Of a stretch of DNA of 39,409 nucleotides, positions 10,193-30,685 are shown one piece after another. The position numbers and the translations under genes were made by a program. A model generated the notes under the pieces. It made no database searches and had not been told where the DNA came from. It worked only from the letters and a program-made list of their open reading frames with translations. How positions within the stretch are numbered: the stretch's first letter is position 1; each line of letters opens with the position of its first letter. This DNA comes from a virus. The stretch lies in UHGV virus genome UHGV-0098635, one strand, 5' to 3'.

Positions 10193-10219
10193 GTATGTTC
10201 GCGATAAAGGTAAATATTG

Positions 10220-10558
10220 ATGGCTAAATCAGCAGCAGAGCGCAAAGCCGCTCAGAGAGCCAGACAAGCTGCATCTGGTGTGCGTAAGCTGGAGATTGTG
10301 CTTGATGCTCAGGAAATTGAAATGCTGGAGCGTAACTGTGCCACGCGTCGCCCCGGGCGTGCGCCTTACGAATTTGGTGAGTATATAGCGTTACTGATCC
10401 GCCAGGATGATGCACGCGTGCGCGGGCGTATAAAATCGATCAGCAGAAAACGTTGCGGTAAGTGCGGCGAGAGAGTTCCTGTGAATTCATGCCCGTGCAA
10501 TGGTGACTCGCAATGCTGGGTGACTAAAGGCTGGCATGAAACGAAATTAATAGTGTGA
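10220..10558 (+). CDS. zinc-finger protein at the end of the early region; candidate late-gene regulator
   Basis: 112-aa ORF with a basic N-terminus and a CGKCGERVPVNSCPCNGDSQC cluster; it is the last gene before a terminator and terminase. Confidence 0.45.
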   Translation: MAKSAAERKAAQRARQAASGVRKLEIVLDAQEIEMLERNCATRRPGRAPYEFGEYIALLIRQDDARVRGRIKSISRKRCGKCGERVPVNSCPCNGDSQCWVTKGWHETKLIV

Positions 10559-10566
10559 CATGTCAC
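10555..10566. repeat. perfect 12-bp palindrome GTGACATGTCAC, copy 1
   Basis: Overlaps the stop codon of the 10220 ORF; an identical copy lies at 30674-30685. Confidence 0.7.
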
Positions 10567-10607
10567 GAGTAGATTATGCATGATGAATTTGATGGGTTTT
10601 GAATACT

Positions 10608-10634
10608 GCCGCCAACTATGGCGGCTTTATTTTG
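10608..10634 (+). terminator. rho-independent terminator upstream of terminase (tR'-like position)
   Basis: Stem GCCGCC / GGCGGC, loop AACTAT, followed by TTTATTTTG. Confidence 0.5.
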
Positions 10635-10676
10635 CATGGTACTATTACCACAACGGTAACTATTACCACGGTGGTT

Positions 10677-11273
10677 ATGATGCCTGCTGAACCTAAAACC
10701 TATAAACGCAAATCAACGCAATTTAAGCCACTAACAGCAATGCAGGAGGCTTATTGCCAGTCATACATCAAAACGCCTGAAAACCAGACTCAGGCAGCGA
10801 TTAACGCAGGATTCTCCCCAAATACAGCGGCAGTTAAAGCCAGTGTCATGATGCGCGATGAACGCATTCAAAAACGGATTGCCGAGTTGATGGAGGAGCG
10901 CAACAAACGAATGCGCGTCAGTGCTGATTACGTTCTCATGCGCCTGGTGGAGATCGACCAGATGGACGTGATCGATATCCTCAACGACGATGGGAGCCTT
11001 AAACCAATCCGTGAGTGGCCGAAAATCTGGCGCACTACGCTTAGTGGCTTTGATCTGTCATCGACCATCATGAACATGAACGAGGATTCGATAGAGACAA
11101 TCCTCAAAAAAATTAAATGGCCTGACAAGGTGAAGAACCTTGAGCTGATTGGTAAGCATGTTGATGTCAACGCGTTCAAAGAACGTCTGGATGTTAATGT
11201 GAATGTGACAATTGCTGATCGCATAGCAGCAGCCAGGAAGCGACTCAAAGAACGTCAGGATGGTAATCAGTGA
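10677..11273 (+). CDS. terminase small subunit
   Basis: Start ATG at 10677 or 10680; positioned directly upstream of the large subunit with a 4-nt overlap. Confidence 0.65.
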   Translation: MMPAEPKTYKRKSTQFKPLTAMQEAYCQSYIKTPENQTQAAINAGFSPNTAAVKASVMMRDERIQKRIAELMEERNKRMRVSADYVLMRLVEIDQMDVIDILNDDGSLKPIREWPKIWRTTLSGFDLSSTIMNMNEDSIETILKKIKWPDKVKNLELIGKHVDVNAFKERLDVNVNVTIADRIAAARKRLKERQDGNQ

Positions 11274-12745
11274 CAGATACCGTGTTATCTCCTGAAGAGC
11301 AGTTAATCGAGGATATTGCAGGGTTCACTCACGATCCGCTTGGTTATGCCCTCTATGCGTTCCCTTGGGGGGAAGAGGGGACTGAACTGGCACATGCTAC
11401 CGGCCCACGTCAGTGGCAGGCCGATGCGTTCCGAGAGATACGTGATCACCTGCAGAATCCAGAGACGCGCTATCAGCCGCTTATGCTGGCACGCGCTTCT
11501 GGTCACGGTATTGGTAAATCCGCATTCATCTCAATGCTGATCAACTGGGGCATGTCCACTTGCGAGGATTGTAAGGTCGTGGTGACCGCCAACACCGACA
11601 ACCAGCTACGAACGAAGACCTGGCCGGAAATTATCAAGTGGTCGAACCTTGCTATCACGAAAGACTGGTTTACCTGTACCGCTACCGCGATGTACAGCAA
11701 TGATCCTGGGCACGACAAGCGGTGGCGAGCTGACGCAATCCCCTGGTCTGAGCACAACACTGAGGCATTCGCCGGACTACACAACGAGCGCAAACGCATC
11801 ATCGTGGTATTCGATGAAGCGTCGAACATTGCGGATCTGGTGTGGGAAGTTGCTGAGGGTGCGCTTACGGACGAAGACACTGAGATTATCTGGGTGGCGT
11901 TCGGAAACCCTACACGTAACACCGGGCGTTTCCGCGAATGTTTCCGCAAATATAAACACCGCTGGAAAACTGCGCAGATTGACAGCCGGACGGTGGAAGG
12001 CACTAACAAACAGCAGTTGCAGAAATGGGTTGATGACTACGGGGAAGACAGCGACTTCGTTAAAATCCGTGTGCGCGGCATATTCCCTGATGCATCTGAA
12101 TTGCAGTTTATCCCTACCGGTCTTACTGATGAGGCAATGAAACGGGTGGTAACCGCTGCGCAGGTGGCGCATGCTCCGGTGATAATCGGTGTTGACCCGG
12201 CATATTCAGGCGTTGATGACGCGGTGATATACCTGCGGCAGGGGCTACACAGTAAGATGCTGTGGACTGGCAACAAGACCACTGACGATCTGATTATGGC
12301 GAAGCGTATCGCTGACTTTGAAGACCAGTATCAGGCTGACGCGGTGTTCATCGACTTCGGTTACGGAACCGGTTTGAAGTCAATCGGTGATGGCTGGGGG
12401 CGTACTTGGCAACTTGTTCCGTTCGGCGGCGCGTCTACTGACCCGCAGATGCTCAATAAGCGCGGGGAGATGTTCAACTCATGCAAGACATGGCTGAGGC
12501 TGGGCGGCATGCTGGATGACCAGGAAACAGCAGACGACCTGTCGGCGGCAGAGTACAAAGTTCGAGTGGACGGTAAAATCGTTATCGAACCGAAGGAAGA
12601 TATCAAGGAGCGGCTTGGGCGTTCACCGGGTAAAGGCGATGCGCTACTGCTGACGTTTGCGTTCCCTGTGTCGAAGCGTCTGCGAATTCCCGGGCAGCAG
12701 AACCAGCAAGGCAAGGCCATTACAGATTACGATCCCTATGCTTAG
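11270..12745 (+). CDS. terminase large subunit
   Basis: 491-aa ORF with an ATPase-like N-terminus and nuclease-like C-terminus, in the canonical position before the portal. Confidence 0.85.
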   Translation: MTDTVLSPEEQLIEDIAGFTHDPLGYALYAFPWGEEGTELAHATGPRQWQADAFREIRDHLQNPETRYQPLMLARASGHGIGKSAFISMLINWGMSTCEDCKVVVTANTDNQLRTKTWPEIIKWSNLAITKDWFTCTATAMYSNDPGHDKRWRADAIPWSEHNTEAFAGLHNERKRIIVVFDEASNIADLVWEVAEGALTDEDTEIIWVAFGNPTRNTGRFRECFRKYKHRWKTAQIDSRTVEGTNKQQLQKWVDDYGEDSDFVKIRVRGIFPDASELQFIPTGLTDEAMKRVVTAAQVAHAPVIIGVDPAYSGVDDAVIYLRQGLHSKMLWTGNKTTDDLIMAKRIADFEDQYQADAVFIDFGYGTGLKSIGDGWGRTWQLVPFGGASTDPQMLNKRGEMFNSCKTWLRLGGMLDDQETADDLSAAEYKVRVDGKIVIEPKEDIKERLGRSPGKGDALLLTFAFPVSKRLRIPGQQNQQGKAITDYDPYA

Positions 12746-13560
12746 TCTTTATTTTTATCCTCGAAACCTGATAATCCAGATAGAACACCAAAGTTATTAA
12801 AAACGTCTGGCTTACCAGATTTTAATCCGGATAAGTTGTGTTGCTCCAAAAAGTTGCTAATTGTTTGGCCGTTGCCAAGTGCAAGACTTTTTATTTGAGA
12901 TTTTTCAGGGTATTTGAGTTTGTATTCGTCGAAATCATTTTGGAGGGTCTTATATGCCTCATTCATTCTTCCCAGAGTTTCCGATATCTCTTTTAATGAA
13001 TGATTTAGAGCTGCTAACTGAGCACTGGCGGATCTCAATTCGTCATCTTTAGCTTTCAACTCGGCAGTCAATTCCCCCATACTATTCTTTGATCGAATAA
13101 TCTCTTCTTTCATCTCTTGGATGTCTTTTTCCGCGCCAGTCTTAACTTTGTCGTATGTAACATCTTTTTTAGCCAATAACCTCTGCAGTCTGGTTTCACG
13201 CTGGATTTTTCTTGCCTTCAGGTGATTTTCGATTGAGTCATTATTATCAAGAGGCTTTGCTTGCCATACGTTAATGATATTGTTTACCCATGGTAATAGG
13301 CAGCAGATAGCAATTACAGATAAGCATGGATAAAACATAACAGTTTTCCATGTGCTGTTATCTGAGATATATGAAATTTTATCTATTATGTTTGATTTGC
13401 TAAAAAATAGATAAAGAATTGATTTCCAGTTGAAGGCGCACCAGGACATAACAAAAGCACCAAGCACAGGGTTTTTGGCTCGATTCACGGCAGTATTGGC
13501 AGTAGATAAAAACAGCTCTTTGAAGGATTCAAACATGCTAATTACCTTGAAGTTTTTCAT
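12742..13560 (-). CDS. accessory membrane plus coiled-coil protein of unknown function
   Basis: AT-rich and opposite in strand to the flanking late genes. Start taken at 13560 (MKNFKV). Two hydrophobic segments and a long charged helical region. Uses AGA/AGG Arg codons. Confidence 0.6.
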   Translation of the reverse strand: MKNFKVISMFESFKELFLSTANTAVNRAKNPVLGAFVMSWCAFNWKSILYLFFSKSNIIDKISYISDNSTWKTVMFYPCLSVIAICCLLPWVNNIINVWQAKPLDNNDSIENHLKARKIQRETRLQRLLAKKDVTYDKVKTGAEKDIQEMKEEIIRSKNSMGELTAELKAKDDELRSASAQLAALNHSLKEISETLGRMNEAYKTLQNDFDEYKLKYPEKSQIKSLALGNGQTISNFLEQHNLSGLKSGKPDVFNNFGVLSGLSGFEDKNKD

Positions 13561-13564
13561 GATT

Positions 13565-13579
13565 ATACCTTTAAGGTAA
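13565..13579 (-). promoter_or_regulatory. operator-like palindrome abutting the accessory gene start
   Basis: Minus-strand TTACCTTAAAGGTAT followed by AATC and the ATG. Confidence 0.5.
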
Positions 13580-13595
13580 TTTGCGGTCATCAAGC

Positions 13596-13619
13596 AAAAA
13601 AATGCCCGGCGAACCGGGC
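13596..13619 (-). terminator. rho-independent terminator (second of two after the tRNA)
   Basis: Stem GCCCGG / CCGGGC, loop CGAA, followed on the minus strand by a T-run. Confidence 0.5.
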
Positions 13620-13696
13620 GAACTGGAAGCAATGAGTTATGCCTTCCGTGGCTGTACTGGTTTACAGCATGAAGTCATCGCAATGGCGTCCTGCTG

Positions 13697-13739
13697 TAAA
13701 AAGGGCGGTGATAGTCCTTCAAGGGAAACCATCACCGCC
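13697..13739 (-). terminator. rho-independent terminator after the tRNA
   Basis: 9-bp stem GGCGGTGAT / ATCACCGCC, followed on the minus strand by CTTTTT. Confidence 0.55.
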
Positions 13740-13782
13740 AAGCCCCTGGAACTTCTGGCATCACGGTCCTTAGGCGTGATTC

Positions 13783-13859
13783 TGGCGTGGCATGCAGGAT
13801 TCGAACCTGCGACCAACCGCTTAGAAGGCGGTTGCTCTGTCCAACTGAGCTAATGCCAC
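13783..13859 (-). tRNA. tRNA-Arg, anticodon UCU (reads AGA)
   Basis: Hand-folded 77-nt cloverleaf: 7-bp acceptor stem GTGGCAT/ATGCCAC, D-arm GCTC..GAGC, anticodon loop CTTCTAA, T-arm GCAGG-TTCGAAT-CCTGC, discriminator G, encoded CCA. Confidence 0.85.
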
Positions 13860-14181
13860 AACGCTGAGAGCACTTAGCCTGTTAAGGCACCACACTTTGT
13901 CGCGGCTCCATAAATGCTCTCATCGTTGTACCCTCGTCTCTTCCGAGGCGTCACACCGAATCGCCGGGATGGTGAATCCCCGTGCGCGGAATAAAACCGC
14001 TCGACTTGCACATTCCGGCTACCTGGTTCGTTTGCCCGAGCAAGGGAGGGTGCCCCTTAAACGTATCCAGACCGCTATCGTCGCATGTGCCATACGCCGT
14101 ACTGCTCAAAATAAAAGCTCACTCCACCTGTTCAATTTAACGACAAGCCAGTCAGGTTAGTAACCGGAATGAACTCTTTAG

Positions 14182-14258
14182 TTACCTGAAAGGTAATAAT
14201 TCGCGCGTTAAATGTCAACTGTCTACGATAAATAAATCATATGTGGTTAAATTGGTAA
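14182..14258 (+). promoter_or_regulatory. composite regulatory module upstream of the portal operon
   Basis: TTACCTGAAAGGTAA (14182-14196), CATATGTGGTT (14237-14247), GGTAAT half-site (14253-14258). Confidence 0.5.
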
Positions 14259-14286
14259 TGATTTAATTGCGTACGGAGTCATTGAT

Positions 14287-14493
14287 ATGTGCATGGGTAG
14301 CTCACCATCAGTGCCTGCAACACCAGAAGTTCAGGCAGCACCACAGGAGCAGGATGCCGCCGTTGTTGATGCCCGCGACGAAGAAACTCGTCGCCGTCGC
14401 GCTGCTGCTGGTCGTAGTTCTACGCTGCTTACCGGTTCTCAGGGCGACACATCAACCGCTAATACCAGCGGTAAAACGCTGCTTGGTCAGTAA
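14287..14493 (+). CDS. small hypothetical protein upstream of the portal
   Basis: 68-aa ORF, Ala/Ser/Thr/Gln-rich; its initiation region GGAGTCATTGATATG is nearly duplicated at the portal start. Confidence 0.4.
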   Translation: MCMGSSPSVPATPEVQAAPQEQDAAVVDARDEETRRRRAAAGRSSTLLTGSQGDTSTANTSGKTLLGQ

Positions 14494-14507
14494 CCGGAGT
14501 CATTGAA

Positions 14508-16187
14508 ATGGCGGAAACAACTAAAGAGCGATTGAACAAACAGTTCGCACAACTTGAAAGCGAGCGTCAGTCGTTCGAGCCGCACTGGCGCGAGTTGAGT
14601 GATTACATCAACCCGCGTGGTTCCCGCTTTCTGACTTCTGAGGTCAACCGTAACGATCGACGCAATACACGCATTATTGATTCGACCGGGACTATGGCGG
14701 CGCGCACTCTCGCCAGCGGCATGATGTCAGGCATCACAAGCCCCGCGCGTCCGTGGTTTCGCTTGGCTACGCCAGATCCTGAAATGATGGATTATGGCCC
14801 TGTTAAGTTGTGGCTTGAGGCGGTGCAGAACCGCATGAACGATATGTTCAATAAGTCGAATCTCTATCAGTCGCTGCCGCAGTTATACGGAAGCCTCGGC
14901 ACATACAGCACTGGTGCAATGGCAGTGCTGGAGGATGACGAGGACATCATTCGCACAATGCCATTCCCGATAGGCAGTTACTACCTGGCTAACTCACCTC
15001 GTGGCAGTGTGGACACCTGTTTTCGCAAGTTCTCTATGACTGTTCGTCAGCTTGTTCAGGAGTTCGGGCTAAATAACGTCAGCGAATCCGTAAAAAGCAT
15101 GTGGGAAAGCGGCACCTACGAGAAGTGGATTGAAGTGATGCATTCGGTTTACCCGAACATTGACCGCGATACATCGAAGCTGGATAGCAAGAACAAGCCA
15201 TTCAAATCGGTTTATTACGAGGTTGGTGGCGATAACGACAAGTTGTTGCGTGAGTCCGGATTCGATGAGTTTCCAATTATGGCTCCGCGCTGGGAAGTTA
15301 ACGGCGAAGATGTTTATGGATCATCATGCCCGGGTATGCTGGCGCTTGGACCTGTTAAGGCATTGCAGCTTCTCCAGAAGCGCAAGTCGCAGTTGATTGA
15401 TAAAGCCACCAATCCGCCGATGGTTGCTCCGACTTCCCTCAAGAATCAGCGCGCCTCCCTTCTTCCTGGCGACATCACGTATATCGATCAGATTACTGGT
15501 CAGGATGGCTTCAGGCCTGCTTATCTGGTTAACCCCAGTACAGCAGATTTGGTGGCAGACATTCAGGACACTCGTCAAATCATTAACAGCGCCTACTTTG
15601 TCGATCTGTTCATGATGTTGCAGAACATCAATACCCGCTCGATGCCTGTTGAAGCGGTGATCGAAATGAAAGAAGAAAAACTTCTGATGTTGGGGCCGGT
15701 TCTGGAGCGTCTGAACGACGAATGTCTTAATCCTCTCATTGACCGCGCTTTCTCGATGATGGTGCGTAAAAACACGCTGCCGCCACCGCCTGACGCGATG
15801 GAAGGCATGCCCCTGAAGGTCGAATACATTTCCGTCATGGCTCAGGCGCAGAAGTCTATCGGCCTGTCCAGTCTGGCGTCCACGGTTAACTTCATTGGTC
15901 AACTTGCGCAAGCGAAACCAGAAGCTCTCGACAAACTCAACGTTGATCAGGCGATCGATGCATTCGCTGATATGTCCGGAGTGTCTCCAACCGTCATTGT
16001 TCCGCAGGAACAGGTTGAGCATGCTCGCCAGCAACGGGCACAGCAGCAACAGCAGCAACAAATGATGGCGATGGGGATGGCGGCGGCACAGGGTGCCAAG
16101 ACGCTAAGCGAAGCTAAAACTTCGGATCCGAGTGTTTTGTCAGCTATGGCGAATGCAGTTAGTGGTCAGGGTGGGCAATCACAATGA
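14508..16187 (+). CDS. portal protein, T7 gp8-like head-to-tail connector
   Basis: 559-aa ORF after terminase; the C-terminal Gln/Ala/Met-rich tail (QQQQQQQMMAMGMAAAQGA) resembles the T7 gp8 C-terminus (recalled). Confidence 0.8.
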   Translation: MAETTKERLNKQFAQLESERQSFEPHWRELSDYINPRGSRFLTSEVNRNDRRNTRIIDSTGTMAARTLASGMMSGITSPARPWFRLATPDPEMMDYGPVKLWLEAVQNRMNDMFNKSNLYQSLPQLYGSLGTYSTGAMAVLEDDEDIIRTMPFPIGSYYLANSPRGSVDTCFRKFSMTVRQLVQEFGLNNVSESVKSMWESGTYEKWIEVMHSVYPNIDRDTSKLDSKNKPFKSVYYEVGGDNDKLLRESGFDEFPIMAPRWEVNGEDVYGSSCPGMLALGPVKALQLLQKRKSQLIDKATNPPMVAPTSLKNQRASLLPGDITYIDQITGQDGFRPAYLVNPSTADLVADIQDTRQIINSAYFVDLFMMLQNINTRSMPVEAVIEMKEEKLLMLGPVLERLNDECLNPLIDRAFSMMVRKNTLPPPPDAMEGMPLKVEYISVMAQAQKSIGLSSLASTVNFIGQLAQAKPEALDKLNVDQAIDAFADMSGVSPTVIVPQEQVEHARQQRAQQQQQQQMMAMGMAAAQGAKTLSEAKTSDPSVLSAMANAVSGQGGQSQ

Positions 16188-16480
16188 CAGATTACGAAGA
16201 CGATCAACTGAAAGAAGAAAACGCCCGTAAGCAACGTGACATGGCGCAGCGTGAAATTGATGACATTCGCTTTGTCATGAGCAGTGAACAGGGGCGTCGC
16301 GTTGTCTGGTCGGTGCTGGAGAAAGGCCGTGTGTTTTCCGCTATCTCACCGATGGACGCTATGGCAATGGCATTTAATGAGGGGCAACGCAATCTGGCGC
16401 TGGAACTGTTTCAGCGCGTTATGGCGCATTGCCCTGAACAGTATTTGAAGATGGCCAAAGAGGCCAGTGAACAGGAGTGA
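16184..16480 (+). CDS. hypothetical head-module protein
   Basis: 98-aa ORF coupled by overlap to the portal stop. Confidence 0.55.
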   Translation: MTDYEDDQLKEENARKQRDMAQREIDDIRFVMSSEQGRRVVWSVLEKGRVFSAISPMDAMAMAFNEGQRNLALELFQRVMAHCPEQYLKMAKEASEQE

Positions 16481-16482
16481 TC

Positions 16483-17178
16483 ATGAATTTGTTTGAGCGT
16501 TTGCTGTATAGCCGTCTTTGCAATGAGCAACCAGTCGATGGTGGAGCAGCTCCGGCTGCGTCAGAACCGTCAGCGCCTGCAGGTGATAACCCTGCTCCAG
16601 TTGGTGATCCATCACAACAGGAAGGTGATAAGCCACAACCTGTTGCTGATGTCGATAAACCTGCTGATGACAAAAAGCCTGAAAACGATAAGCAGGATGA
16701 AAAAAAGGACGGCGATAAACCAGAGGGTGCGCCTGAGAAGTACGAGTTTCAGGCTGCCGAAGGCGTAGAGCTGGATACAGAAGCGTTGAAGGAATTCGAG
16801 CCGGTGGCGCGAGAACTTAACCTGACCAACGAGCAAGCGCAAAAGCTGGTTGATGCTTATCCGAAGATTCTGGCAGGTGTTCAGCAGCGCCAGGCAGAAG
16901 CCTGGCAGAAAACAACCGAGCAGTGGGCTGCGGATGTAAAAGCTGACAAAGAAATCGGTGGCGACAAGTTGATTTCTAACCTTAGCGCCGCACAGCGTGC
17001 GCTTGACCAGTTCGGGACACCTGAACTCAAAGAATATCTGAACACCACCGGGCTGGGTAATCACCCTGATCTGGTCAAAACGTTCGTGAAAATCGGAAAG
17101 GCGATGTCTGAAGATGGCATGGTCACCGGTGGTAATGAAGGCCAGCGTAGTGCGGCCGAAGTGCTCTATGGCAAATAA
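16483..17178 (+). CDS. scaffolding protein (gp9-like position)
   Basis: Acidic, low-complexity, helical ORF between portal and capsid; ATG at 16483 with AGGAG RBS. Confidence 0.6.
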   Translation: MNLFERLLYSRLCNEQPVDGGAAPAASEPSAPAGDNPAPVGDPSQQEGDKPQPVADVDKPADDKKPENDKQDEKKDGDKPEGAPEKYEFQAAEGVELDTEALKEFEPVARELNLTNEQAQKLVDAYPKILAGVQQRQAEAWQKTTEQWAADVKADKEIGGDKLISNLSAAQRALDQFGTPELKEYLNTTGLGNHPDLVKTFVKIGKAMSEDGMVTGGNEGQRSAAEVLYGK

Positions 17179-17186
17179 GAGAGGAA

Positions 17187-18179: not shown

Positions 18180-18230
18180 CGCCTGTTATTAACCTGTGGG
18201 TCGTAACAGACCCACTAATGGAGAAAGAAG

Positions 18231-18668: not shown

Positions 18669-18669
18669 G

Positions 18670-19014: not shown

Positions 19015-19032
19015 GCCTCGCGAATCCGACAA

Positions 19033-19052
19033 GGGGCTTCGGCCCCTTTATT
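19033..19052 (+). terminator. rho-independent terminator within the late operon
   Basis: Stem GGGGC / GCCCC with a TTCG loop, followed by TTTATT. Confidence 0.5.
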
Positions 19053-19064
19053 GCAGGAGTGTAT

Positions 19065-19993: not shown

Positions 19994-22446
19994 TGGCTAT
20001 CAGTTGGATCCAGCCCAGCTTTGCCGGTGGTGAGATTGGACCGTCGTTGTACGGTCGTATCGACATGGCGAAGTACCAGGTGGCATTGCGCAAGTGCGAT
20101 AACTTTATCGTGCGGCAGTATGGCGGCGTTGAGAATCGACCTGGTACGCGTTTTGTCGGTGCCGCCAAATACCCAAATCGGAAATGCCGCCTGATCCCGT
20201 TCCAGTTCTCGACGGTTCAGACTTATGCTCTGGAGTTCGGACACCAGTACATGCGCGTTATCAAAGATGGTGCGTTGGTGCTGAACAGCAGCAATGTTAT
20301 TTATGAAATTGCCACGCCATATACTGAAGCCGATCTGTTCCGAATTAAATTCACGCAAAGCGCAGACGTGCTTACGCTGGTTCATCCGGCATACCCGCCG
20401 AAAGAGTTGCGCCGCTATGCGCATGACAACTGGCAACTGGTTGATGTGGTAACGAAGAACGGGCCATTTGAAGATATCAATATTGACGAGTCAGTGACGG
20501 TTTATGCCAGCGCCAGCACCGGGACAATTACGTTAACGGCAAGCGCCTCAATTTTTGGCGCGGAGCAGGTAGGCAAATTGTTCTATCTGGAACAGCCTGC
20601 AGTGGATTCTGTGCCGGTATGGGAAACCAGTAAGAGTACGTCGATTGGCGATATTCGCCGTGCAGACAGTAACTACTATCGCGCCGTTACAGCAGGCAAA
20701 ACAGGCACTTTGCGCCCTTCGCATACAGAAGGCACATCATGGGATGGCTGGGGCGGATCCGGTGATGATGATACCGGCATTGAGTGGGAGTATCTGCACA
20801 GTGGTTTTGGCATTGCCCGTATCTCTGCTGCAAATGGAACTACTGCAACTGCCGAGGTGATTTCCTATATCCCTTCGCAGGTAGTTGGCGAGGATAATGC
20901 CAGCTATAAATGGGCTAAATATGCCTGGAACAGTATTAACGGTTATCCTGGCACTGTTGTTTATTATCAACAACGCCTTTACTTCGCCGCATCGACTGCG
21001 TTCCCTCAGACTATCTGGGCCAGCCGTACCGGGGATTATAAGGATTTTGGCAAAAGCAATCCTACGCAGGATGACGACAGAATTATCTACACCTATGCCG
21101 GGCGTCAGGTTAATGAGATCCGCCACCTGATTGATGTCGGTTCGCTGGTGGCACTGACTTCCGGAGGTGAGTACGTCATCACCGGCGACCAGAACAAAGT
21201 GTTAACCCCATCATCATTTGCATTCAGCTCTCAGGGATCAAATGGCTCGAGCAATGTCCCACCAATTGCCGTGGCGAATATTGCTCTGTTCGTCCAGGAG
21301 AAAGGCAGTGTTGTCCGTGATCTGGCCTACTCATTCGATGTTGACGGCTATCAGGGGAACGACCTGACCATCCTTGCCAATCATCTTTTTCAGAAGCACA
21401 GCATTGTTGACTGGTGCTTCTCTATTGTCCCTTACTCCAGCGCCTTCTGCATTCGTGATGACGGTAAATTACTGGTGATGACCTATCTGCGTGATCAACA
21501 GGTTTTTGCATGGGCACCACAGTCCAGTACCGGAAAATATGAAAGCACATGCAGTATCAGCGAAGGCAATGAAGATGCGGTGTATTTCGTCGTTAACCGA
21601 ACCGTTAACGGGCAAACAGTGAGATACATCGAGCGACTGTCCAGCCGTTTATTTACCAGCGATGAAGATGCTTTCTTTGTTGATTCTGGCCTTAGCTATG
21701 ATGGAAGAAATACGTCTGACAGAACGATGACCATCACTGGTGGTTCTGGTGAATGGGATTACCGCGCGGAATATACAATCAGTGTTTCTGGTGGTGCGTA
21801 CTTCACCAGTAGTGATGTCGGTGCGCAACTACAGTTCCCTTATACCGGCGATGAAGTGTCAAAAGAATTACGTTGCGACATTATTTCTGTAACCAGCAAT
21901 ACCGCAGTAGTGGTTCGTGCTAACAGGAACGTCCCGCCATCCCTCAGGAATGTGGCTACCACAAACTGGCAGATGGCGCGCCGGACATTTGGCGGCTTGT
22001 CTCATCTTGAAGGCCAGACCGTAAACATCCTCTCTGATGCGAACGTGGAACCACAAAAAGTGGTTTCCGGAGGTGCCGTCACGCTGGAATCACCGGGGGC
22101 TGTTGTGCACATCGGCCTGCCAATAACTGCTGAATTCGAAACACTGGATATCAACATTAACGGACAGGAAACGCTGCTGGACAAAAAACAGGTGATCCCG
22201 TCCGTTACTCTGGTTGTGAATGCCAGTCGCGGCATCTGGGCGACTACGCCCGGCGGTAAATGGTACGAATATCCACAGCGTGAATTCGAGTTCTACGATG
22301 ATCCTGTTGATGACGCTACCGGAAAAGTAGAAGTGAAACTGGACAGTAACTGGGGCAAAAACGGACGTGTAAAAATCCGTCAGCTTGACCCGTTGCCGCT
22401 GTCTGTTCTTGCCGTTATTCCTCGCCTTACTGTTGGGGGATTCTGA
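19993..22446 (+). CDS. tail nozzle, T7 gp12-like (tail tubular protein B)
   Basis: 817-aa ORF in the gp12 position; call rests on size and synteny. Confidence 0.6.
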   Translation: MAISWIQPSFAGGEIGPSLYGRIDMAKYQVALRKCDNFIVRQYGGVENRPGTRFVGAAKYPNRKCRLIPFQFSTVQTYALEFGHQYMRVIKDGALVLNSSNVIYEIATPYTEADLFRIKFTQSADVLTLVHPAYPPKELRRYAHDNWQLVDVVTKNGPFEDINIDESVTVYASASTGTITLTASASIFGAEQVGKLFYLEQPAVDSVPVWETSKSTSIGDIRRADSNYYRAVTAGKTGTLRPSHTEGTSWDGWGGSGDDDTGIEWEYLHSGFGIARISAANGTTATAEVISYIPSQVVGEDNASYKWAKYAWNSINGYPGTVVYYQQRLYFAASTAFPQTIWASRTGDYKDFGKSNPTQDDDRIIYTYAGRQVNEIRHLIDVGSLVALTSGGEYVITGDQNKVLTPSSFAFSSQGSNGSSNVPPIAVANIALFVQEKGSVVRDLAYSFDVDGYQGNDLTILANHLFQKHSIVDWCFSIVPYSSAFCIRDDGKLLVMTYLRDQQVFAWAPQSSTGKYESTCSISEGNEDAVYFVVNRTVNGQTVRYIERLSSRLFTSDEDAFFVDSGLSYDGRNTSDRTMTITGGSGEWDYRAEYTISVSGGAYFTSSDVGAQLQFPYTGDEVSKELRCDIISVTSNTAVVVRANRNVPPSLRNVATTNWQMARRTFGGLSHLEGQTVNILSDANVEPQKVVSGGAVTLESPGAVVHIGLPITAEFETLDININGQETLLDKKQVIPSVTLVVNASRGIWATTPGGKWYEYPQREFEFYDDPVDDATGKVEVKLDSNWGKNGRVKIRQLDPLPLSVLAVIPRLTVGGF

Positions 22447-22910: not shown

Positions 22911-23455
22911 TGTGCGATCCGGTTATTGCTGGTGGCGCAATGCTCGCCATGAGTGGCATTCAGGCATACACCCAGTACCAACAGGGAAAGTATGCCTCGA
23001 AGGTTGCAGAAGCGAACGCAGATATAGCCACAGCTCAGGCAAATGATGCAATAAACAGGGGTAACGCTGAAGCTGAGCAACGGCGCAGAGAGACCCGACA
23101 GCGGCTTGGTACACAGGCGGCGACAATGGGGGCTACCGGCGCTGATTTATCTACCGGTAACGCGCTGGATATATTTGGTGACACTGCTCAGTTTGGCGCT
23201 CTTGATTCGCTGACGACGGTGAATAACGCGCAACGCGAGGCTTACGGTTATCAGGTTCAGGCTGCCAACTATAAAGCAGAAGCCAGTTCAGCCCGTAAAC
23301 AGGGGAATGTGGGAGCAGCAACAACATTGCTCACTGCGCCTCTGAAGGCATACGGTGCGTACCAGATGTTTGGTGGGACGTGGAGTCCGTTTACTCAAAG
23401 CACCCCTGCGCCAATCGGGGCAGCAGCAGGAACCAGATTACCCGGAGGATTATAA
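22910..23455 (+). CDS. internal virion protein B, T7 gp14-like
   Basis: The N-terminus MCDPVIAGGAMLAMSGIQAYTQYQQGKY parallels the T7 gp14 N-terminus MCWAAAIPIAISGAQAISGQNAQAKM (recalled); similar size. Confidence 0.65.
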   Translation: MCDPVIAGGAMLAMSGIQAYTQYQQGKYASKVAEANADIATAQANDAINRGNAEAEQRRRETRQRLGTQAATMGATGADLSTGNALDIFGDTAQFGALDSLTTVNNAQREAYGYQVQAANYKAEASSARKQGNVGAATTLLTAPLKAYGAYQMFGGTWSPFTQSTPAPIGAAAGTRLPGGL

Positions 23456-25968
23456 TGCCAGTCGTACCAACAGTATCCGGACGCCAGGTTGAGAGCCGTG
23501 GAGTTCAGTCAGCAGGCTTGCAGACGTTTTCTCAGCCAGGTATTGGTGATGCTTTTGTTCGGGCAGGGACAGAGGCAATTGATGTTTTGGGGCAGGCAAA
23601 ACAGCGTGCCAATATCGCTCTGGCTCAGGAGGCATCTCTTAACCTCAGTCAGATAAGCAGTGATCTGCTGAATAACCCTGAAACAGGTTTGCTTAACCTG
23701 AAAGGGAAAAATGCTATTGGAAAAGGCCATGAGTATACGCAGCAGTTTGATGCTCAGGTCGAACAACTGGCTATGTCGCTGCCGGATGAACAGGCTCGTA
23801 ATGCTTTCATGCAGCAGGCGCAGCAGCAGCGCATTCAGTTCACTACGCAGGCCGGGCGACACGAGATAGGGCAAATTAATGCCTACGAAGAAGGCCAGTT
23901 TCAGGCGACACTGCTGAACAATGGTAAAAATGCCGCAGCATTGTATGGCGACAACGCCGCATACGTATTGGCTAACAAACAAACTTTCCAGCAAATTGAG
24001 GAGTACGGTGTTGCACATGGCTGGAGCAACGAGCAAATCCAGGCCAAGAAAATCGAGTTTAAAGAGAAGGTTGCTGATGCTGCATTGTCCCAGTGGTCGG
24101 CAAACAATGCGACCGCATTCATCCAAAGTAATGGCGAGTTAAGTGATACTGCTGCTGGAGCTCGCCGTGCTGTAGCAGATAGTGACTCTTCCGAGCGTGC
24201 CCGTGGCATACGCAACAATAACCCAGGAAATCTCGAATACAGCAAAACTAATCCGTGGGTAGGCCAGACCGGTGATGATGGTCGATTTGCTAAATTCGAA
24301 ACACCTGAACACGGGATTCGTGCATTAGGGCGGAACCTGATGTCGTATCAGAGGCAGGGTATTGATACCGTCAGCGAGATAATTAATCGCTGGGCACCGC
24401 CTGCTGATAAAAATGACACTATGTCGTATATCAAAGCAGTGTGCGAACAACTTGGCGTTTCTGCTGATGAGCCTCTCGATGCATCTAATCCTGATACCCT
24501 GAAGGCGCTTTGTGCAGCCATTATCCATCATGAGAACGGTAGCCAGCCATACAGTGATCAGCAGTTAACTGCTGGTGTCAGTGCAGCACTTGGTTTATCA
24601 ACAATTCCAACCAACACCAAACGCTATACCGGTAATGCAGCATTCGATGCGGCATCTCCTGAGGCTCAGGCAAGTTTTATGTGGCAGGCGGATCAACTGC
24701 GTCGGCAGCAGCAGGCTGAATATAAAACGATGATTGACAGCCAGGTTCGCGATGCGACGGCTGCGTATATGCGTGGCGTTGAATTTCCTAACCCACCTGG
24801 TGAGGCTGATTTTATTGCAGCTTATGGAGTCAGAGAAGGAAACCTGCGATATACCGAGTTTAAGAATACGCAGATCGCCGGACAGTATATAGGCTCTTTC
24901 CGCAACATGCCGACAAGCAGCATTACAGCATATGTTGAGCAATTACGCCCGGATACTGGTGAGACAGGGGAGGGTTATGCGGCTCGCGCAGCTCTTTATG
25001 ACAACGTTGTTTCGGCTGCAAATCAGGTGATAAAGCAGCGGCAGTCTGATCCTGTGCAGTTCTCTCTTGCCTCCGGACAGGCAAAGCCTATCGACATGAG
25101 CAATAAGGATAACTTTGGACAGAGCGTTGCCTTGCGTGCCGCTCAGGTCAGTGACCTTGCTAAGTCATATGGCACTCCACTGACGTTCTTTTCCAAAGAC
25201 GAGGCCAATCAGATCGGTGTTTTTTTTCGTGATGCTCCAGTTTCCCAACAGGCAGCATATCTCGATACCATCAGGCAGAGCACTGGTGGTGGGCAGGTGT
25301 ATATGTCAGCACTACAGCAGATCAGTGCCAACGCTCCATCTGCTGCCGTTGCCGGGATACTGATGGACAAGCCTGGTGGTATTTTGGCAGAAAAAAACTG
25401 GTTTAATCCGGATGTTTCCGTGTCTCCTGAAACCGCTGCGCAGACAATTCTTACTGGCGCGGCGGCTCGTAAAGGTACTGATGATGCGAAAGGTATTCCG
25501 ATGCCTAAAGATGCTGATCTTCGCCTTGAGTTTTCTGACATGGTGAAGGATGCATTTGCTGGTGATGCTCAGGGGGCATCAATGGCATACGAGATCGCAA
25601 AGGACTATTACGCTGGTGTGATGGCGAAAAAAGGCGTGATATCAGGCGAAATTGACAATGATATCTGGAAACAGGCTGTTAACGTAGCTACAGGTGGCGT
25701 GCATGACTATAACGGAATGGGGAATGTTCTTTTGCCGTGGGGAATGTCTGCAGAGCAATTCGATAAGCAGGTTAATCAGGCTTGGAATGAACAAGTTGTC
25801 GGCACAGGGATAAAAACACCGCCTGGTCAGTATGGTTTGCAAAGTTACGGCGATAGTCAGTACCTGGTAAAACTTGGGGCTGGATATCTGCTGAAGGATG
25901 ATGGTTCTCCTGTTGTTCTTGATCTGACACAGAAGCGTCAGAGATTCTCCGGAGATATTCCGCAATGA
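23456..25968 (+). CDS. internal virion / ejection protein (gp15-like position)
   Basis: About 837 aa from the ATG at 23456 (GGAGG RBS); the track ORF from 23380 overlaps the upstream gene in another frame. Contains an RNNNPGNLEY...NRWAPP segment. Confidence 0.6.
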
Positions 25969-27767
25969 GTTACTTTGGCCTTAATCCAGTAAACCAGAAT
26001 CAGCAGCTTGACGAAGCAGCATCAAATCCAGCTGGCTTTAACAGCGATGTTGGTTTTTTCGACAATGCTGTAGGAGCGGCATTGTCTGGTTTGTACTCCG
26101 GGCTGGTGGCAAAGCCAGATCAGTTGCTCTGGGCAGGGATGGATAAAATCGTATCCCCGATTGCTCAGTTTATTAACGAAAACACCTCGCTCAATGATAC
26201 TTCAGTTTCATACATTGCCGAGCAGAGAAAACTAGCAGAGCAGCAGGTTAAGCGGCTGACGCCTGATGCCGCGACAACCGGAACCGCCGGGCAGGTTCTT
26301 TATGGGTTGTTCGATATGGGCGGGCAGGCTGTTGTCGGTACAACGCTCGGTGGTCCTGTCGGAGGTGCAGCGGCGGTAACTTCGCTACAGGGTTTTTCTG
26401 AGTTTGAACGGCTGACAGCACAGGGTGTTGATTTCAGGACGGCGCAGGAAGCGGGATTAGTGCAGGGCATTACTGCTGGTGCCGGAACACTGATCCCTAT
26501 GAGCCTCGGGTTACGTGCTGGTGGTGCGCTGGCGGAAGGTGTGGCGGCTCAGCTTGCGCGGACGGGTGAGAGTTCAGTGCGACGCGCCGCAGCAACAGCA
26601 GTACGTGCAACGCCAGATATTGCCTATGCCGCAGGTACAAATATTGCGTTCGGTATGGCACAGCGTGGGCTTACTGCAAAAACACTTCGTGATGGTGGCT
26701 ATAGCGAAATGGCTAACCAGTATGATGTGTTGGATCGACAGGCAATTGCTATTGATGCTGTTCTTGGGGTGGCGTTTGGTGGTGTCGGCAGATTTATTAA
26801 CTCTCGCGGCGAGTCTACAAGCGCACCAAATTTTTCACCAGTTGATATTGATGCTGCACTGGCGGCGAATGCCGCTCATCATGCTGAAATTGATATTGCT
26901 CCCGGCGTTCCGATCAACGTGCTTTCGCGTAATTCGCACATTCAGGCTCTGCGAAAAGCCATGTCTGATGTTAGCCAGGGGAGACCTGTAGACGTTGCCA
27001 GCATTGTTGAGTCTGCATCTTTCAGTGAAATTCCTGGGCGCAAGAGTCTGCTGTCTCAGGCAGTTAATGAGGCTCTGTCATCTGTAGATGATGGAGTAAC
27101 GGCGCGCGCTATAGAAAATCGGTTGCTTGAAGAACAGGCCGCGCAGCTTTTGTCGCGTGGCGATAGAAAGGTTTACCAGTCTGAAATCGCTAATAGCCAA
27201 CGAATTATTGAAAATCTCACTGAACAGCGCGCACAAATTCTTGCAGAAGAGCCAACCGGTAGCGGTAAGGCTTTATCTCGTGCTCGATCAGATAAACAGG
27301 CCAGACTTCGCGATATTGACCAACGAATCCGGCAGGCACAAGAACGCCTGGAATTTTCTCGTAACGCGTTGGCGCCGCACGAGCCTGGAGGTCAGTTTTT
27401 TGAAGCTCGAGCAGAACTGGCACGACGACAGCAGGCAGAAAGTGAACTTAATGCTCAGGCTGTTTCATTCTATAAAACAGCAGAGGTCAGGACGCCAGAA
27501 GAAGTAGCTCCTTTTGAGCCCGGTAAGATATTGCAACAGACAGAACAAAAAATGATGGCAGATCCGGCAGGAGATATTGATCTGCGTATAGCTGAAGACT
27601 CGCTGCTTGAATCACCTGACATGATAATCACCGTGCTGGATGATGATGGTAATCCACAATCGCGCAGTGCGCGTGAAGTACTGGATGAAGCGAACAGGGA
27701 AAGTGAGCAGGCAATACAGGATTCCAGCCTGTTTGATGTTGCTGTGGCGTGTTTCTTGAGAGGTTAA
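25965..27767 (+). CDS. internal virion / ejection protein
   Basis: 600-aa ORF coupled by ATGA overlap; Ala/Gly-rich N-terminus and a charged helical C-terminus. Confidence 0.6.
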   Translation: MSYFGLNPVNQNQQLDEAASNPAGFNSDVGFFDNAVGAALSGLYSGLVAKPDQLLWAGMDKIVSPIAQFINENTSLNDTSVSYIAEQRKLAEQQVKRLTPDAATTGTAGQVLYGLFDMGGQAVVGTTLGGPVGGAAAVTSLQGFSEFERLTAQGVDFRTAQEAGLVQGITAGAGTLIPMSLGLRAGGALAEGVAAQLARTGESSVRRAAATAVRATPDIAYAAGTNIAFGMAQRGLTAKTLRDGGYSEMANQYDVLDRQAIAIDAVLGVAFGGVGRFINSRGESTSAPNFSPVDIDAALAANAAHHAEIDIAPGVPINVLSRNSHIQALRKAMSDVSQGRPVDVASIVESASFSEIPGRKSLLSQAVNEALSSVDDGVTARAIENRLLEEQAAQLLSRGDRKVYQSEIANSQRIIENLTEQRAQILAEEPTGSGKALSRARSDKQARLRDIDQRIRQAQERLEFSRNALAPHEPGGQFFEARAELARRQQAESELNAQAVSFYKTAEVRTPEEVAPFEPGKILQQTEQKMMADPAGDIDLRIAEDSLLESPDMIITVLDDDGNPQSRSAREVLDEANRESEQAIQDSSLFDVAVACFLRG

Positions 27768-27772
27768 ATTAA

Positions 27773-30247
27773 ATGAGACAGGAATGTATACAAGCGGTCC
27801 AGCAGGCGGCGCAGCGCACGTTAACGGCGCGAGAAATACAGAACATTGAAGACCGCATTTATCGAAATATGCGCTCCATTGCTCGTGATGACCCGATGTC
27901 GTGGCGACAACTTTCCGAATCAGAGCGGCTGTATCGTGCAGCACAATTGGCATCTGAAGAATTACAGCGAGAAGCGGCATTAAAGAAACGTCGTGTGGCC
28001 CTCACTATAGCCGCACGTCAGAGATTGGATAAATTTATCAATAGCTATCAAGGGGCTGATGGGAAACTTGGCGCTCTTAACCGTACTATTGCTTTTAATG
28101 CAGACGGTAAATCGAATTTCCTCTCTGTTGAATCCAGAACAAAAGCCACCCGTGATTATGCATTGAGTCAATTACAGGAGGCATTCGAAGCAGTTGATCC
28201 TCGCTTTTTTGGTCTGTTTGAAGATGAAGCGGGCGTACGTGACCTGGTATATGAAATGCGGGGGCAAAATACTGGCAATGCTAAAGCAAGAAAAGGTGCT
28301 AAGGCGTGGAGAGAAGTGACAGAGCTACTGCGCCGCCGGTTTAATGATGCTGGTGGGGACATTGGCTATCTCGAAAACTGGGGGATCCCTCAACATCATT
28401 CTATGGAAAAGGTTGGGGCGGTATCAAAAGATAAATGGGTTAGCGATGTTATAGGTAAGCTGGATCGCAAATATTATACCCGAGCCGATGGACAACTGAT
28501 GAACGATGCCGAGTTGTCTGCATTTCTTGGAGAGGCTTATAACACGATCGCTACTGGTGGGCTGAATAAGCTTACTGATACCGGAATGCGAATTTCCGGC
28601 GCACGTGCTAACCGTGGTAATGCATCACGACAGATACATTTCAAAGATGCAGATTCCTATCTGCAATATCAGCAACTTTATGGCGATCGCTCTCTATGGG
28701 AAATCATGGTCGGTCACCTGGAAGGGATCAGTAAAGATATTGCTTTGGTGGAAACATATGGTCCAAACCCCGATCATGTTTTCCGTTCCCTTCTTGATCA
28801 GGTGAAGGCAGAAACGGCAACAGCTAACCCGAGTAAAACCGGTAGCGTCGAGCGGCTGGCGAACAAAACAGAGAACCTGTACAACTTTATTTCCGGAAAG
28901 ACACAGCCTGTTGCGAATCCTCACATCGCGCGCTGGTCTGACAATATCAGAAACTGGCTGGTTGCCAGCAGGCTCGGATCCGCGTTGCTGTCATCGTTCT
29001 CTGATCTTGGAACCATGTATCTGTCTGCGAAGGTTACCAACCTTCCAATGAACCAGTTATTCCGCAACCAGCTTGAAGCTATGGACCCAACGAACCGTAC
29101 AGAACTTGCGCGGGCGCGCCGCGCTGGTCTGGCGATGGAATCTCTACTTGGCAGCGTTAACCGCTGGGCGATGGATAATATGGGGCCGTCAGTGTCTCGT
29201 TGGGCGGCAACGGCGGTAATGCGTGCCAGTGGGCTTACAGCATGGTCAGATGCGCACAAGCGCGCTTATGGCGTAACCATGATGGGAAGCCTGGGAGAAG
29301 TAGTGTCACGGACACCAGACCTTCGTAGCCTCGATGACTCTGATTTTCGTATCCTGAAAAGCAAAGGGATTACTGACACAGACTGGAGCGTATGGAAGCT
29401 GGCGCAACAGGAGGACTGGGGGAACGGTAATAATACGATGCTGACACCGGAAAGCATTATGCGTATCCCTGATTCAGCAGTTAAACATCTTGGTGAGCCT
29501 GAACGTGTGAAATTTGAGGCAATGCGTAAACTGCTCGGTGCCGTAACTGAAGAAGTTGATATGGCTGTTATTACACCGGGCGCACGTGAACAGATGTTCG
29601 TAGGGTCTGGTCTTCAGCGTGGAACATGGAAAGGTGAATTAACGAGAAGTGTTTTCCTGTTTAAATCGTTCCCTATCTCGGTAGTTATGCGTCACTGGCA
29701 TAGAGCTATGGGGATGCCGTCTGCTGGTGGGCGTGCGGCATATATAGCAACGTTTTTAGCAAGCACAACCATGCTTGGTGCTCTTTCCATGCAGATTACT
29801 GATCTTATTAATGGGAGAAATCCAAAAGAAATGACCGGTGACAACATGGTTAAATTCTGGATAAATGCATTTTTAAAAGGTGGTGGGGCAGGGTTGTATG
29901 GTGATTTTCTTTTCTCTGACCACACCAGGTACGGGAGCGGCGCACTAGCGTCGATGCTTGGCCCGGTAGCTGGTCTGGTTGATGACGTAGTGAAGATTGC
30001 TCAGGGCATACCGTTAAATGCTGTGGAAGGGAAGAATGAGCAGACTGGTGGTGATCTGGTTAAGCTTGGGAAAGGTTTGATGCCTGGTGCGAATCTCTGG
30101 TACTTGAAGGCGGCTCTCGATCACATGATCTTTAATCAGATGCAGGAGTATTTTTCACCAGGCTATTTGCGTAAAATGGAGCAACGTTCGAAGAAAGAGT
30201 TTAACCAGACATACTGGTGGCGACCTCAGGATGTCACTCCGCAATAA
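27773..30247 (+). CDS. internal virion protein, T7 gp16 C-terminal-region-like
   Basis: The segment LFKSFPISVVMRHWHRAMGM...AFLKGGGAGLYGDFLF parallels the T7 gp16 segment QFKSFTIKSLNSKFLRTFYDG...MGLAGGFYAM (recalled). Confidence 0.65.
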   Translation: MRQECIQAVQQAAQRTLTAREIQNIEDRIYRNMRSIARDDPMSWRQLSESERLYRAAQLASEELQREAALKKRRVALTIAARQRLDKFINSYQGADGKLGALNRTIAFNADGKSNFLSVESRTKATRDYALSQLQEAFEAVDPRFFGLFEDEAGVRDLVYEMRGQNTGNAKARKGAKAWREVTELLRRRFNDAGGDIGYLENWGIPQHHSMEKVGAVSKDKWVSDVIGKLDRKYYTRADGQLMNDAELSAFLGEAYNTIATGGLNKLTDTGMRISGARANRGNASRQIHFKDADSYLQYQQLYGDRSLWEIMVGHLEGISKDIALVETYGPNPDHVFRSLLDQVKAETATANPSKTGSVERLANKTENLYNFISGKTQPVANPHIARWSDNIRNWLVASRLGSALLSSFSDLGTMYLSAKVTNLPMNQLFRNQLEAMDPTNRTELARARRAGLAMESLLGSVNRWAMDNMGPSVSRWAATAVMRASGLTAWSDAHKRAYGVTMMGSLGEVVSRTPDLRSLDDSDFRILKSKGITDTDWSVWKLAQQEDWGNGNNTMLTPESIMRIPDSAVKHLGEPERVKFEAMRKLLGAVTEEVDMAVITPGAREQMFVGSGLQRGTWKGELTRSVFLFKSFPISVVMRHWHRAMGMPSAGGRAAYIATFLASTTMLGALSMQITDLINGRNPKEMTGDNMVKFWINAFLKGGGAGLYGDFLFSDHTRYGSGALASMLGPVAGLVDDVVKIAQGIPLNAVEGKNEQTGGDLVKLGKGLMPGANLWYLKAALDHMIFNQMQEYFSPGYLRKMEQRSKKEFNQTYWWRPQDVTPQ

Positions 30248-30256
30248 GGAACAACA

Positions 30257-30670
30257 ATGAAGGAATTATTGCTGTTATCGGTATTTTTGATATCCGCTTG
30301 CTCGACATCCTATGATGTTTATGACGGTGTTGATAAGGCATATTGCGACAAAGTTAAAATGGATTTTTCTCTTGCCAAGACGGCGAAGGATAGTTGTATT
30401 GATCACTACGTCAAGACTTATACCAAGCCAGCCTCATCGGCATCTGATATTGCTGAAGGTGCTGTGTTTGAGTGTAACAAGGTGATATCCATCGCAGCGA
30501 GTTCTTCATACGATGCTGCTGTATGTGCAATGGCTGAAAGAAACGGCATGTCAGTGCAAAAAATTAATAGCATGATAAGCAGTAATGACGAAGCCAAAAT
30601 AAGAACTGATATCAGCTCGGTGAAAAAAGATGCCATGAACAGAGTTGTAAAATATCAGTCATCTTTATAA
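30257..30670 (+). CDS. lipoprotein, accessory gene
   Basis: 137-aa ORF with a signal peptide and lipobox (LISAC); AT-rich; last gene of the late operon before a terminator. Confidence 0.65.
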   Translation: MKELLLLSVFLISACSTSYDVYDGVDKAYCDKVKMDFSLAKTAKDSCIDHYVKTYTKPASSASDIAEGAVFECNKVISIAASSSYDAAVCAMAERNGMSVQKINSMISSNDEAKIRTDISSVKKDAMNRVVKYQSSL

Positions 30671-30673
30671 GTC

Positions 30674-30685
30674 GTGACATGTCAC
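30674..30685. repeat. perfect 12-bp palindrome GTGACATGTCAC, copy 2
   Basis: Lies 4 nt after the lipoprotein stop and abuts the terminator stem. Confidence 0.7.

Follow-up and report, generated by a model that had tools for sequence, protein, structure and literature searches.

Copies of a 12-bp palindrome in a phiV10/epsilon15-like prophage as candidate operators of the PHROG 536 protein

The viral DNA studied here, UHGV virus genome UHGV-0098635 (39,409 nucleotides; this whole stretch is called the window), corresponds to a podophage of the phiV10/epsilon15 type, genus Uetakevirus, in the prophage state. It carries one and the same perfect 12-bp palindrome, GTGACATGTCAC, at two places, S1 and S2, and the question raised by this locus is what such a sequence does there. 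The answer favoured here is that the palindromes are copies of a dispersed operator, GTGAC-N2-GTCAC (in this prophage Y-GTGACATGTCAC-R), which would be recognised on double-stranded DNA by a dimer of the protein encoded by the open reading frame (ORF) at 10217-10558. On sequence comparison this reading is considered probable, if not strongly so. A binding site for a regulator had been one of the proposals of the original prediction, and the comparative evidence favours such a site, with the gene whose stop codon overlaps S1 as the candidate source of the binding protein. The three features concerned are the following:

10217-10558, plus strand: 113-aa gp55-like ORF, candidate binding protein; probable start ATG 10220; family of phiV10 gp55, epsilon15 gp49 and N15 gp46; PHROG 536
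10555-10566, no strand: S1, GTGACATGTCAC; overlaps the TGA stop codon (10556-10558) of the gp55-like ORF, upstream of the terS leader
30674-30685, no strand: S2, GTGACATGTCAC; starts 3 nt after the TAA stop codon (30668-30670) of the last rightward gene of the virion operon and abuts a terminator hairpin

The sequence GTGACATGTCAC occurred exactly twice in the window, at the positions originally predicted. The expectation from dinucleotide shuffles was 0.01 copies, and two or more copies were reached in 0 of 100 shuffles. When up to two mismatches were allowed over the whole window, the sole extra match was a near-match at 16236, in coding sequence. Nine perfect 12-bp palindromes are present in the window, and the chance that any two of them are identical was about 0.009 after a look-elsewhere correction, a value that is suggestive and non-decisive by itself; it is the comparative evidence that decides. 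The palindromes were accepted as real because the identical 12-mer was found, between divergent flanks, at orthologous positions in relatives of many genera, including prophages of Escherichia, Salmonella, Enterobacter, Klebsiella, Citrobacter, Kluyvera, Rahnella, Yersinia, Pantoea, Erwinia and others. Far from being absent from all homologous prophages, the palindrome has orthologous copies across this whole range. It was absent from the 40 kb of host DNA sampled, and no paper containing the 12-mer turned up in a literature search.

The conservation of each site was then followed in relatives. S1 was kept at the orthologous position in about 94 related contexts and across genera: among 13 prophages of other genera, with TerL proteins 73-94% identical, it was exact in 10 and altered only in the central dinucleotide in two. 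S2 was present once in each of the 80 IMG/VR relatives, which were the loci fetched with the upstream virion gene (exact in 73, one mismatch in 7). Furthermore, a 43-nt query across S2 and its hairpin found matches in 456 of the 5426 complete E. coli genomes, with a median of one per genome. Among close E. coli relatives, the site was less variable than the adjacent non-coding bases at S1 and at a third site, S3 (described below), but at S2 it was no less variable than the hairpin stem; hence, the case for selection rests on the cross-genus data.

For the analysis of the flanks, 244 exact copies were reduced to 38 mutually divergent contexts. The flanking positions carried about 0.1-0.5 bit, except that position -1 was a pyrimidine (Y) in 37 of the 38 contexts and position +1 a purine (R) in all of them, and therefore the site is effectively a 14-bp palindrome. 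The general motif is GTGAC-N2-GTCAC flanked by Y and R, and its spacing is strict: in 2.35 Mb of related loci, 260 copies with N2 were counted, together with one with N1 and three with N5, and none with N0, N3, N4 or N6 or in everted arrangements. The central dinucleotides found were AT, TG, GC, AC, AG and CT between constant half-sites, and one-mismatch near-sites were absent in the phages N15, phiKO2 and K233. Two further centre variants, GTGAC-CC-GTCAC and GTGAC-GG-GTCAC, were found within tailspike and holin-like coding sequences and are taken to be chance occurrences. A role as a component of intrinsic terminators was rejected, as the site folds separately and the hairpins vary around an invariant site. 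In loci L174, L191 and L017 and in N15, site copies are followed by a ribosome-binding site and a gene, with no terminator.

The evidence that ties the motif to one gene came from phages of very different types. The exact site covers the TGA stop of the PHROG 536 gene in Uetakeviruses, in Pantoea and Erwinia prophages beside cutC and in a Yersinia prophage. Over the TGA stop of N15 gp46 (35% identity) and phiKO2 gp45 (37%) stands cGTGACtgGTCACg, and over that of gp13 of the P2-like Yersinia phage YenM (42%) stands ttGTGACgcGTCACaa, with a GC centre. The exact site was found 2 nt after the stop of ZF40 gp22 (67% identity) and 11 nt after a PHROG 536 gene remnant in the lambdoid phage Chlobot; in a lambdoid prophage of Serratia, it falls inside the 3'-terminal part of the gene, immediately ahead of xis/int. 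In a Xenorhabdus P2-like prophage, the stop of the gene is followed after 4 nt by ATGACATGTCAC and a hairpin. Across podo-, sipho-, P2-like and other phage types, the site overlaps or adjoins the stop of this gene, even where the proteins share just 35% identity.

The number of copies pointed in the same direction. The 13 gene-bearing phage genomes (532 kb) contained 32 copies, against 0.51 expected, versus none in the small control set of four gene-less phages (lambda, P22, Pseudomonas Flu_PA14_4 and Acinetobacter Ab9; 174 kb). Each genome had one to four copies, about three being typical. N15 and phiKO2 have three TG-centre copies each, at orthologous places with diverged flanks, namely the leader of the icd/ant antirepressor operon, the interior of the replicase gene and the stop of gp46 or gp45; the first of these places suggests that a link to antirepressor control is shared. 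ZF40 also has three copies, all exact and some of them inside coding genes, and Vibrio K233, with a protein of 31% identity, has three copies with AC or GC centres, one of them 19 nt before terS.

Two observations concern the surroundings of these copies. The copy inside the replicase gene (N15, L197, position 33237, repA/gp37; phiKO2, L201, record position 37663, Gp35) has been kept despite differing flanks, which hints at a control of replication-gene expression. Additionally, a DNA methyltransferase gene lies directly upstream of the PHROG 536 gene in L186/L187, L188 and L198 (ZF40 gp21-gp22), and a functional link between the two genes is possible.

The PHROG 536 family bears the label "transcriptional regulator". 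The layout of the gp55-like protein comprises a basic N-terminus, a core resembling a ribbon-helix-helix (RHH) and a C-terminal Cys cluster. Structure modelling gave a weak RHH match; a first AF2 model (pLDDT 64.5) gave no Foldseek match, and no match was obtained against Pfam, NCBIfam, PADLOC or PDB sequences. From the modelled fold, we infer that the protein would be an RHH DNA binder. A MatP-like identity was rejected (hhalign probability 0.15%, with no detectable sequence or profile similarity), and a literature search returned nothing on the function of N15 gp46. The immunity (CI) repressor was also discarded as the binder: its operators, of the ACCCNAYAGGTAA type, are unrelated to the palindrome, and the immunity region contains no motif-like sequence.

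The original prediction also held that the pair of palindromes brackets the whole virion operon. This proved to be an accident of the window. Three classes of site were distinguished in relatives, S1 (stop of the gp55-like gene), S2 (end of the virion operon) and S3 (just after terL), and most relatives have S3 inside the supposed bracket. S3 adjoins the stop of a small leftward accessory gene; it is present in PAS61, phiV10, an epsilon15-like Salmonella phage, BUCT554, Tyrion and SPN9TCW and in most of the 80 close IMG/VR relatives, and some relatives have a fourth copy. In L037, two tandem leftward genes follow terL, each ending in the order stop codon, 4 nt, site, 4 nt, hairpin; the 12-mer is identical in both cassettes and the hairpin sequences are different. 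The window lacks S3 because another cassette fills that slot:

12742-13859, minus strand: window-specific leftward cassette in the S3 slot of relatives; 296-aa ORF (12742-13632) and tRNA-Arg(tct) (13783-13859)

The 296-aa ORF is coiled-coil-like, with weak SMC, DndD and LmuB-type matches only. The related idea that the palindrome marks operon ends was borne out within Uetakevirus, where each site comes after a stop codon and most come before a terminator, but it is not general, given the copies inside coding genes of N15, phiKO2 and ZF40.

At the other end of the virion operon, S2 lies between features of both strands:

30257-30670, plus strand: variable last gene of the rightward operon, 137-aa lipoprotein, PHROG 8691; one of at least seven alternative cassettes 5' of S2
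30686-30710, plus strand: intrinsic terminator directly after S2 (hairpin 30686-30703 and T run)
30709-32798, minus strand: C4/isrK antisense-RNA and antirepressor-type operon, converging on S2 (Rfam, ORFs; weak YafO-like match)

The prediction that the last late gene encodes a lipoprotein agreed with the lipoprotein signal MKELLLLSVFLISAC of ORF 30257-30670. In relatives, the genes directly upstream of S2 are of at least seven unrelated kinds, and S2 with its hairpin forms a constant 30-bp unit common to the mosaic relatives. On the opposite side, Rfam matches at gathering level were obtained on the minus strand for C4 antisense RNA (32613-32697) and isrK (32722-32798), which indicate that the leftward operon ending at S2 is driven by a C4/antirepressor control region of the P1 type; where the window has this operon, relatives have antirepressor genes (Ant or Bro-N).

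If the PHROG 536 protein binds these sites, the bound protein at gene and operon ends would act as a valve or roadblock on transcription elongation. This mode is favoured over promoter control because the sites have no fixed distance to a conserved promoter and are placed within genes or at the ends of cistrons or operons, in many cases with the next start codon 9-19 nt further on. At S1, the protein would gate the read-through from the early-right operon into the terminase/virion operon, and feedback on its own expression would be possible since the site covers the stop codon of its own gene. At S2, it would act as an insulator between the virion operon and the converging antirepressor operon, and crossover at the site would be incidental, the site being the sole invariant sequence beside variable accessory-gene slots. 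A more remote possibility, by analogy with lacI, is that the copy over the stop codon makes expression self-limiting through a roadblock-truncated, non-stop mRNA. Abo et al. are said to have found in 2000 that LacI bound at O3, an operator at the 3' end of lacI, truncates the lacI mRNA and gives rise to a tmRNA-tagged product. Both arrangements place a binding site over the 3' end or stop codon of the gene of the (here presumed) binder; the protein families are not the same.

Several observations speak against this operator model. The stop of the gene itself has no copy in Vibrio K233, and S1 is missing from the Samsonia locus L099. The half-sites are invariant while the protein diverges to 31% identity, an uncommon pattern for partners that co-evolve and one that an invariant host factor could also explain. 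No consistent promoter was found at a fixed distance from the sites. Finally, a roadblock conflicts with the position of S3 within the late operon, where terL precedes the site and the portal gene follows it; the two would be compatible only if the protein were absent or displaced late in infection.

Among the other explanations weighed, the one closest to the mosaic structure of these genomes sees the palindrome as a linker at module boundaries, kept as microhomology or as the target of an unknown nuclease or recombinase for the swapping of cassettes and modules. Homology to relatives does start or stop at the edges of the site, several different genes are inserted immediately after S1, at least seven left cassettes combine with at least five right flanks around the 30-bp unit of S2, and PAS61 looks like a site-to-site deletion of the tandem cassettes of L037. 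The phage encodes RecT and an exonuclease, and short conserved boundary sequences are a proposed concept (PMC3029335). A BLAST breakpoint census showed enrichment at both sites (29 and 47 loci in the site bins), but junctions without the motif scored as high or higher (81, 77 and 61 loci; e.g., 12726-12750 and 30251-30275), and a hairpin without the motif is also a junction. The copies of N15, phiKO2 and ZF40 inside conserved coding genes are not at cassette borders, no associated recombinase or nuclease was found, and neither the strict link to the stop codon of one gene across phage types nor the common centre variant within each genome would be explained. We regard this explanation as unlikely. 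The exchangeable-module site of the original prediction consequently retains weak support, from the breakpoints that fall on the sites, in the face of equally strong junctions without the motif; no inversion or excision product was seen, and a recombination role looks like a secondary by-product of an invariant functional sequence beside variable slots. An element acting in RNA, GUGAC-NN-GUCAC as a protein-bound hairpin or processing site that controls translation of the next gene or 3'-end stability, would suit the transcribed inter-cistronic or 3'-UTR (untranslated region) positions that Uetakevirus sites always have. It would also suit their frequent location 9-19 nt before the next ATG (the mini-ORF of the window, described below, L017, L174, L191, Chlobot, N15 gp47 and K233). 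Invariant arms with a variable centre fit a stem and loop, and the commonest single variants, GTGATATGTCAC and GTGACATGTTAC, would retain G-U pairs. Nevertheless, the hairpin has just 4 bp and -1.2 kcal/mol, no better than shuffles; it folds apart from the neighbouring terminators, is not always in the minimum-energy fold and has no compensatory stem changes over very large divergence. The symmetric Y/R flanks and perfect two-fold symmetry point instead to duplex DNA read by a dimer, as would the modelled RHH fold, typical of a duplex-DNA binder. An RNA-level role was accordingly judged improbable.

A further candidate reader is a conserved enterobacterial protein such as MatP or one like SlmA. 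MatP is itself an RHH protein, on which this idea draws; GTGACA and TGTCAC are consensus matS half-sites, and invariance of the motif across hosts suits an invariant host protein. However, the spacing is 1 bp shorter than in matS, and the true N3 form was found 0 times in the 2.35 Mb. Lambda and P22 share the hosts and have no copies, and the site co-occurs with a phage gene and is found in a Vibrio phage too. The prophage, moreover, lies beside guaA, outside the Ter macrodomain on the K-12 map. The published matS consensus is GTGACATTGTCAC or GTGAC[AG]N[TC]GTCAC (PMC8669397, PMC3603311, PMC3116907); in Xenorhabdus the site keeps its form, even though GTTAC-N3-GTAAC is used in the related Photorhabdus (PMC8669397), and matS is avoided by prophages (PMC3603311). 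The outer four bases match the SlmA site GTGAGTACTCAC, whereas the four central positions differ from that consensus (PMC3116907). A host factor appears quite improbable on these grounds. A comparably slim chance is given to a variant in which the site is a phage "matS minus one" read by a phage RHH protein, perhaps an evolutionary or functional analogue of MatP, that would bridge or loop two to three sites to organise or insulate the phage DNA, or would interfere with MatP/MukBEF. Recognition by the terminase, as a packaging (pac) site, is suggested by the positions of S1 just upstream of terS and S3 just after terL, which flank the terminase genes in relatives, and by the K233 copy 19 nt upstream of terS. 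Against it, there are multiple copies per genome, one of them 20 kb away, and other phages have copies within repA, next to xis/int and in the leader of the ant operon; the distribution of the site follows that of the PHROG 536 gene, whatever the type of terminase (the cos phage N15, P2-like phages and podoviruses), and the start of the phiV10 record inside the site is an annotation convention only. A literature search gave nothing usable on Uetakevirus packaging, and a pac function is considered very improbable.

The operator model has its nearest parallel in stoperators, the repressor-binding sites with which Cluster A mycobacteriophages (L5, Bxb1) halt elongation in short intergenic spaces (PMC9283540). 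In both cases, short sites are dispersed in a temperate phage outside promoters, near stop codons and gene or operon ends, and tied to a phage-encoded DNA-binding protein with a plausible action on elongating RNA polymerase. Stoperators, however, number more than 20 per genome, as opposed to one to four copies here, and are 13-bp asymmetric sequences bound by a monomer in an orientation-linked manner, unlike the present perfect palindrome, which implies a dimer and no orientation. They are bound by the immunity repressor, while the palindrome is unlike the CI-type operators of the window (4346-4404). A location in intergenic spaces at gene ends is common to all Uetakevirus copies but not to some of those of N15, phiKO2 and ZF40. 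The matS/MatP system is similar in its identical half-sites (GTGACA and TGTCAC), its few dispersed sites and the RHH-like model of the candidate binder. It differs in its 13-bp GTGAC-RNY-GTCAC sequence with a 3-bp spacer, compared with 12 bp and a 2-bp spacer, never 3, in the phages, and in its place in the chromosomal Ter region, the phage-borne site having a probably transcriptional function.

With RHH regulators of phages and plasmids (Arc, Mnt, CopG, MetJ, ParD-type antitoxins and TraM), the system would share a small protein with a beta-alpha-alpha core and a short symmetric site adjoining its gene. The site described here lies over the stop of the gene and not at its promoter, with further copies at other operon ends or inside genes, and the protein has an additional N-terminal basic helix and C-terminal Cys cluster, its modelled fold assignment being weakly supported. 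The boundary sequences proposed for lambdoid phages (cited in PMC3029335) likewise coincide with junctions of conserved and swapped segments; most junctions here are without the motif, which also occurs inside conserved genes (N15, phiKO2 and ZF40) and tracks one protein gene. Phage regulators with dispersed sites are known, and it is the PHROG 536 family, its motif and the placement over the gene's own stop that appear undescribed.

If confirmed, the operator model would give a function and a DNA target to the uncharacterised PHROG 536 family, members of which are found in at least 146 deposited phage genomes (N15, phiKO2, epsilon15, phiV10, ZF40, P2-like Yersinia phages and many Vibrio phages among them) and, as prophages, in about 8% of complete E. 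coli genomes. It would also represent a second, mechanistically different case of operators at gene ends instead of promoters and would offer a handle on the separation of early, late and antirepressor transcription in epsilon15-like phages. The motif is moreover a practical marker of accessory-gene slots in these prophages.

Some minor features of the prophage were also recorded. Its insertion site lies between guaA and yfgI, as seen in a near-identical E. coli chromosome (L181), and host DNA with yfgI, yfgH and yfgG homologs occupies 37649-39224, in the last ~1.9 kb at the right end of the window. Three ACCCNAYAGGTAA-type repeats, two direct and one inverted, were found at 4346-4404, between the CI-like gene and the gene in the Cro position; they are likely immunity operators, of a sequence unrelated to the palindrome. 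A second hairpin of the S2 type (aggccgctcttgcggcc) stands without the palindrome about 3.4 kb downstream in L103 (10824), L106 (9614) and L165 (10953), at another mosaic junction; such a hairpin alone can thus serve as a crossover point.

The leader between S1 and terS, whose start lies 110-125 nt from S1, contains two further elements:

10576-10602, plus strand: mini-ORF MHDEFDGF-stop, 8 codons, between S1 and the terminator; its stop lies 5 nt before the terS-leader terminator
10608-10634, plus strand: intrinsic terminator upstream of terS (hairpin 10608-10625 and T run), 41 nt 3' of S1; folds independently of the palindrome

About 20 relatives (e.g., L017, 5121-5333) have an intact 70-aa gene (...YDEFDGL), of which the mini-ORF is the remaining 3' end. 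Between genera (L088, L090 and L094), its differences were called synonymous, the peptides being MRDEFDGF, MLDEFDGF and MTDEFDGF, and it may form a leader-peptide or attenuator arrangement for the late operon. A use of S1 as the -35 element of a late promoter was rejected, as the window has only a weak 9/12 match, which is not kept in epsilon15-type or Rahnella-type leaders. The Rfam search around S1 returned only a sub-threshold rseX match (E = 0.12). Two copies of an 11-bp direct repeat, ACTATTACCAC, stand 18 bp apart between the leader terminator and the start codon of terS (10641-10669); the repeat could be a terminase or regulatory element.

In the phiV10 record (L002), S1 spans the record origin with one mismatch (GTGA|CATGTTAC), and linearisation has evidently left just one base of a "terminator" feature, at 39104. 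A physical DNA end at this point was rejected, the record having merely been opened after the last stop codon. Finally, in L086 (BUCT554, ~20260-20320), L087, L093 and L096, an additional gene directly after S1 has a sigma-70-like promoter together with a LexA box that is perfect (e.g., tACTGTttaaatgtACAGTat) and looks like an SOS-controlled accessory gene ahead of terS.

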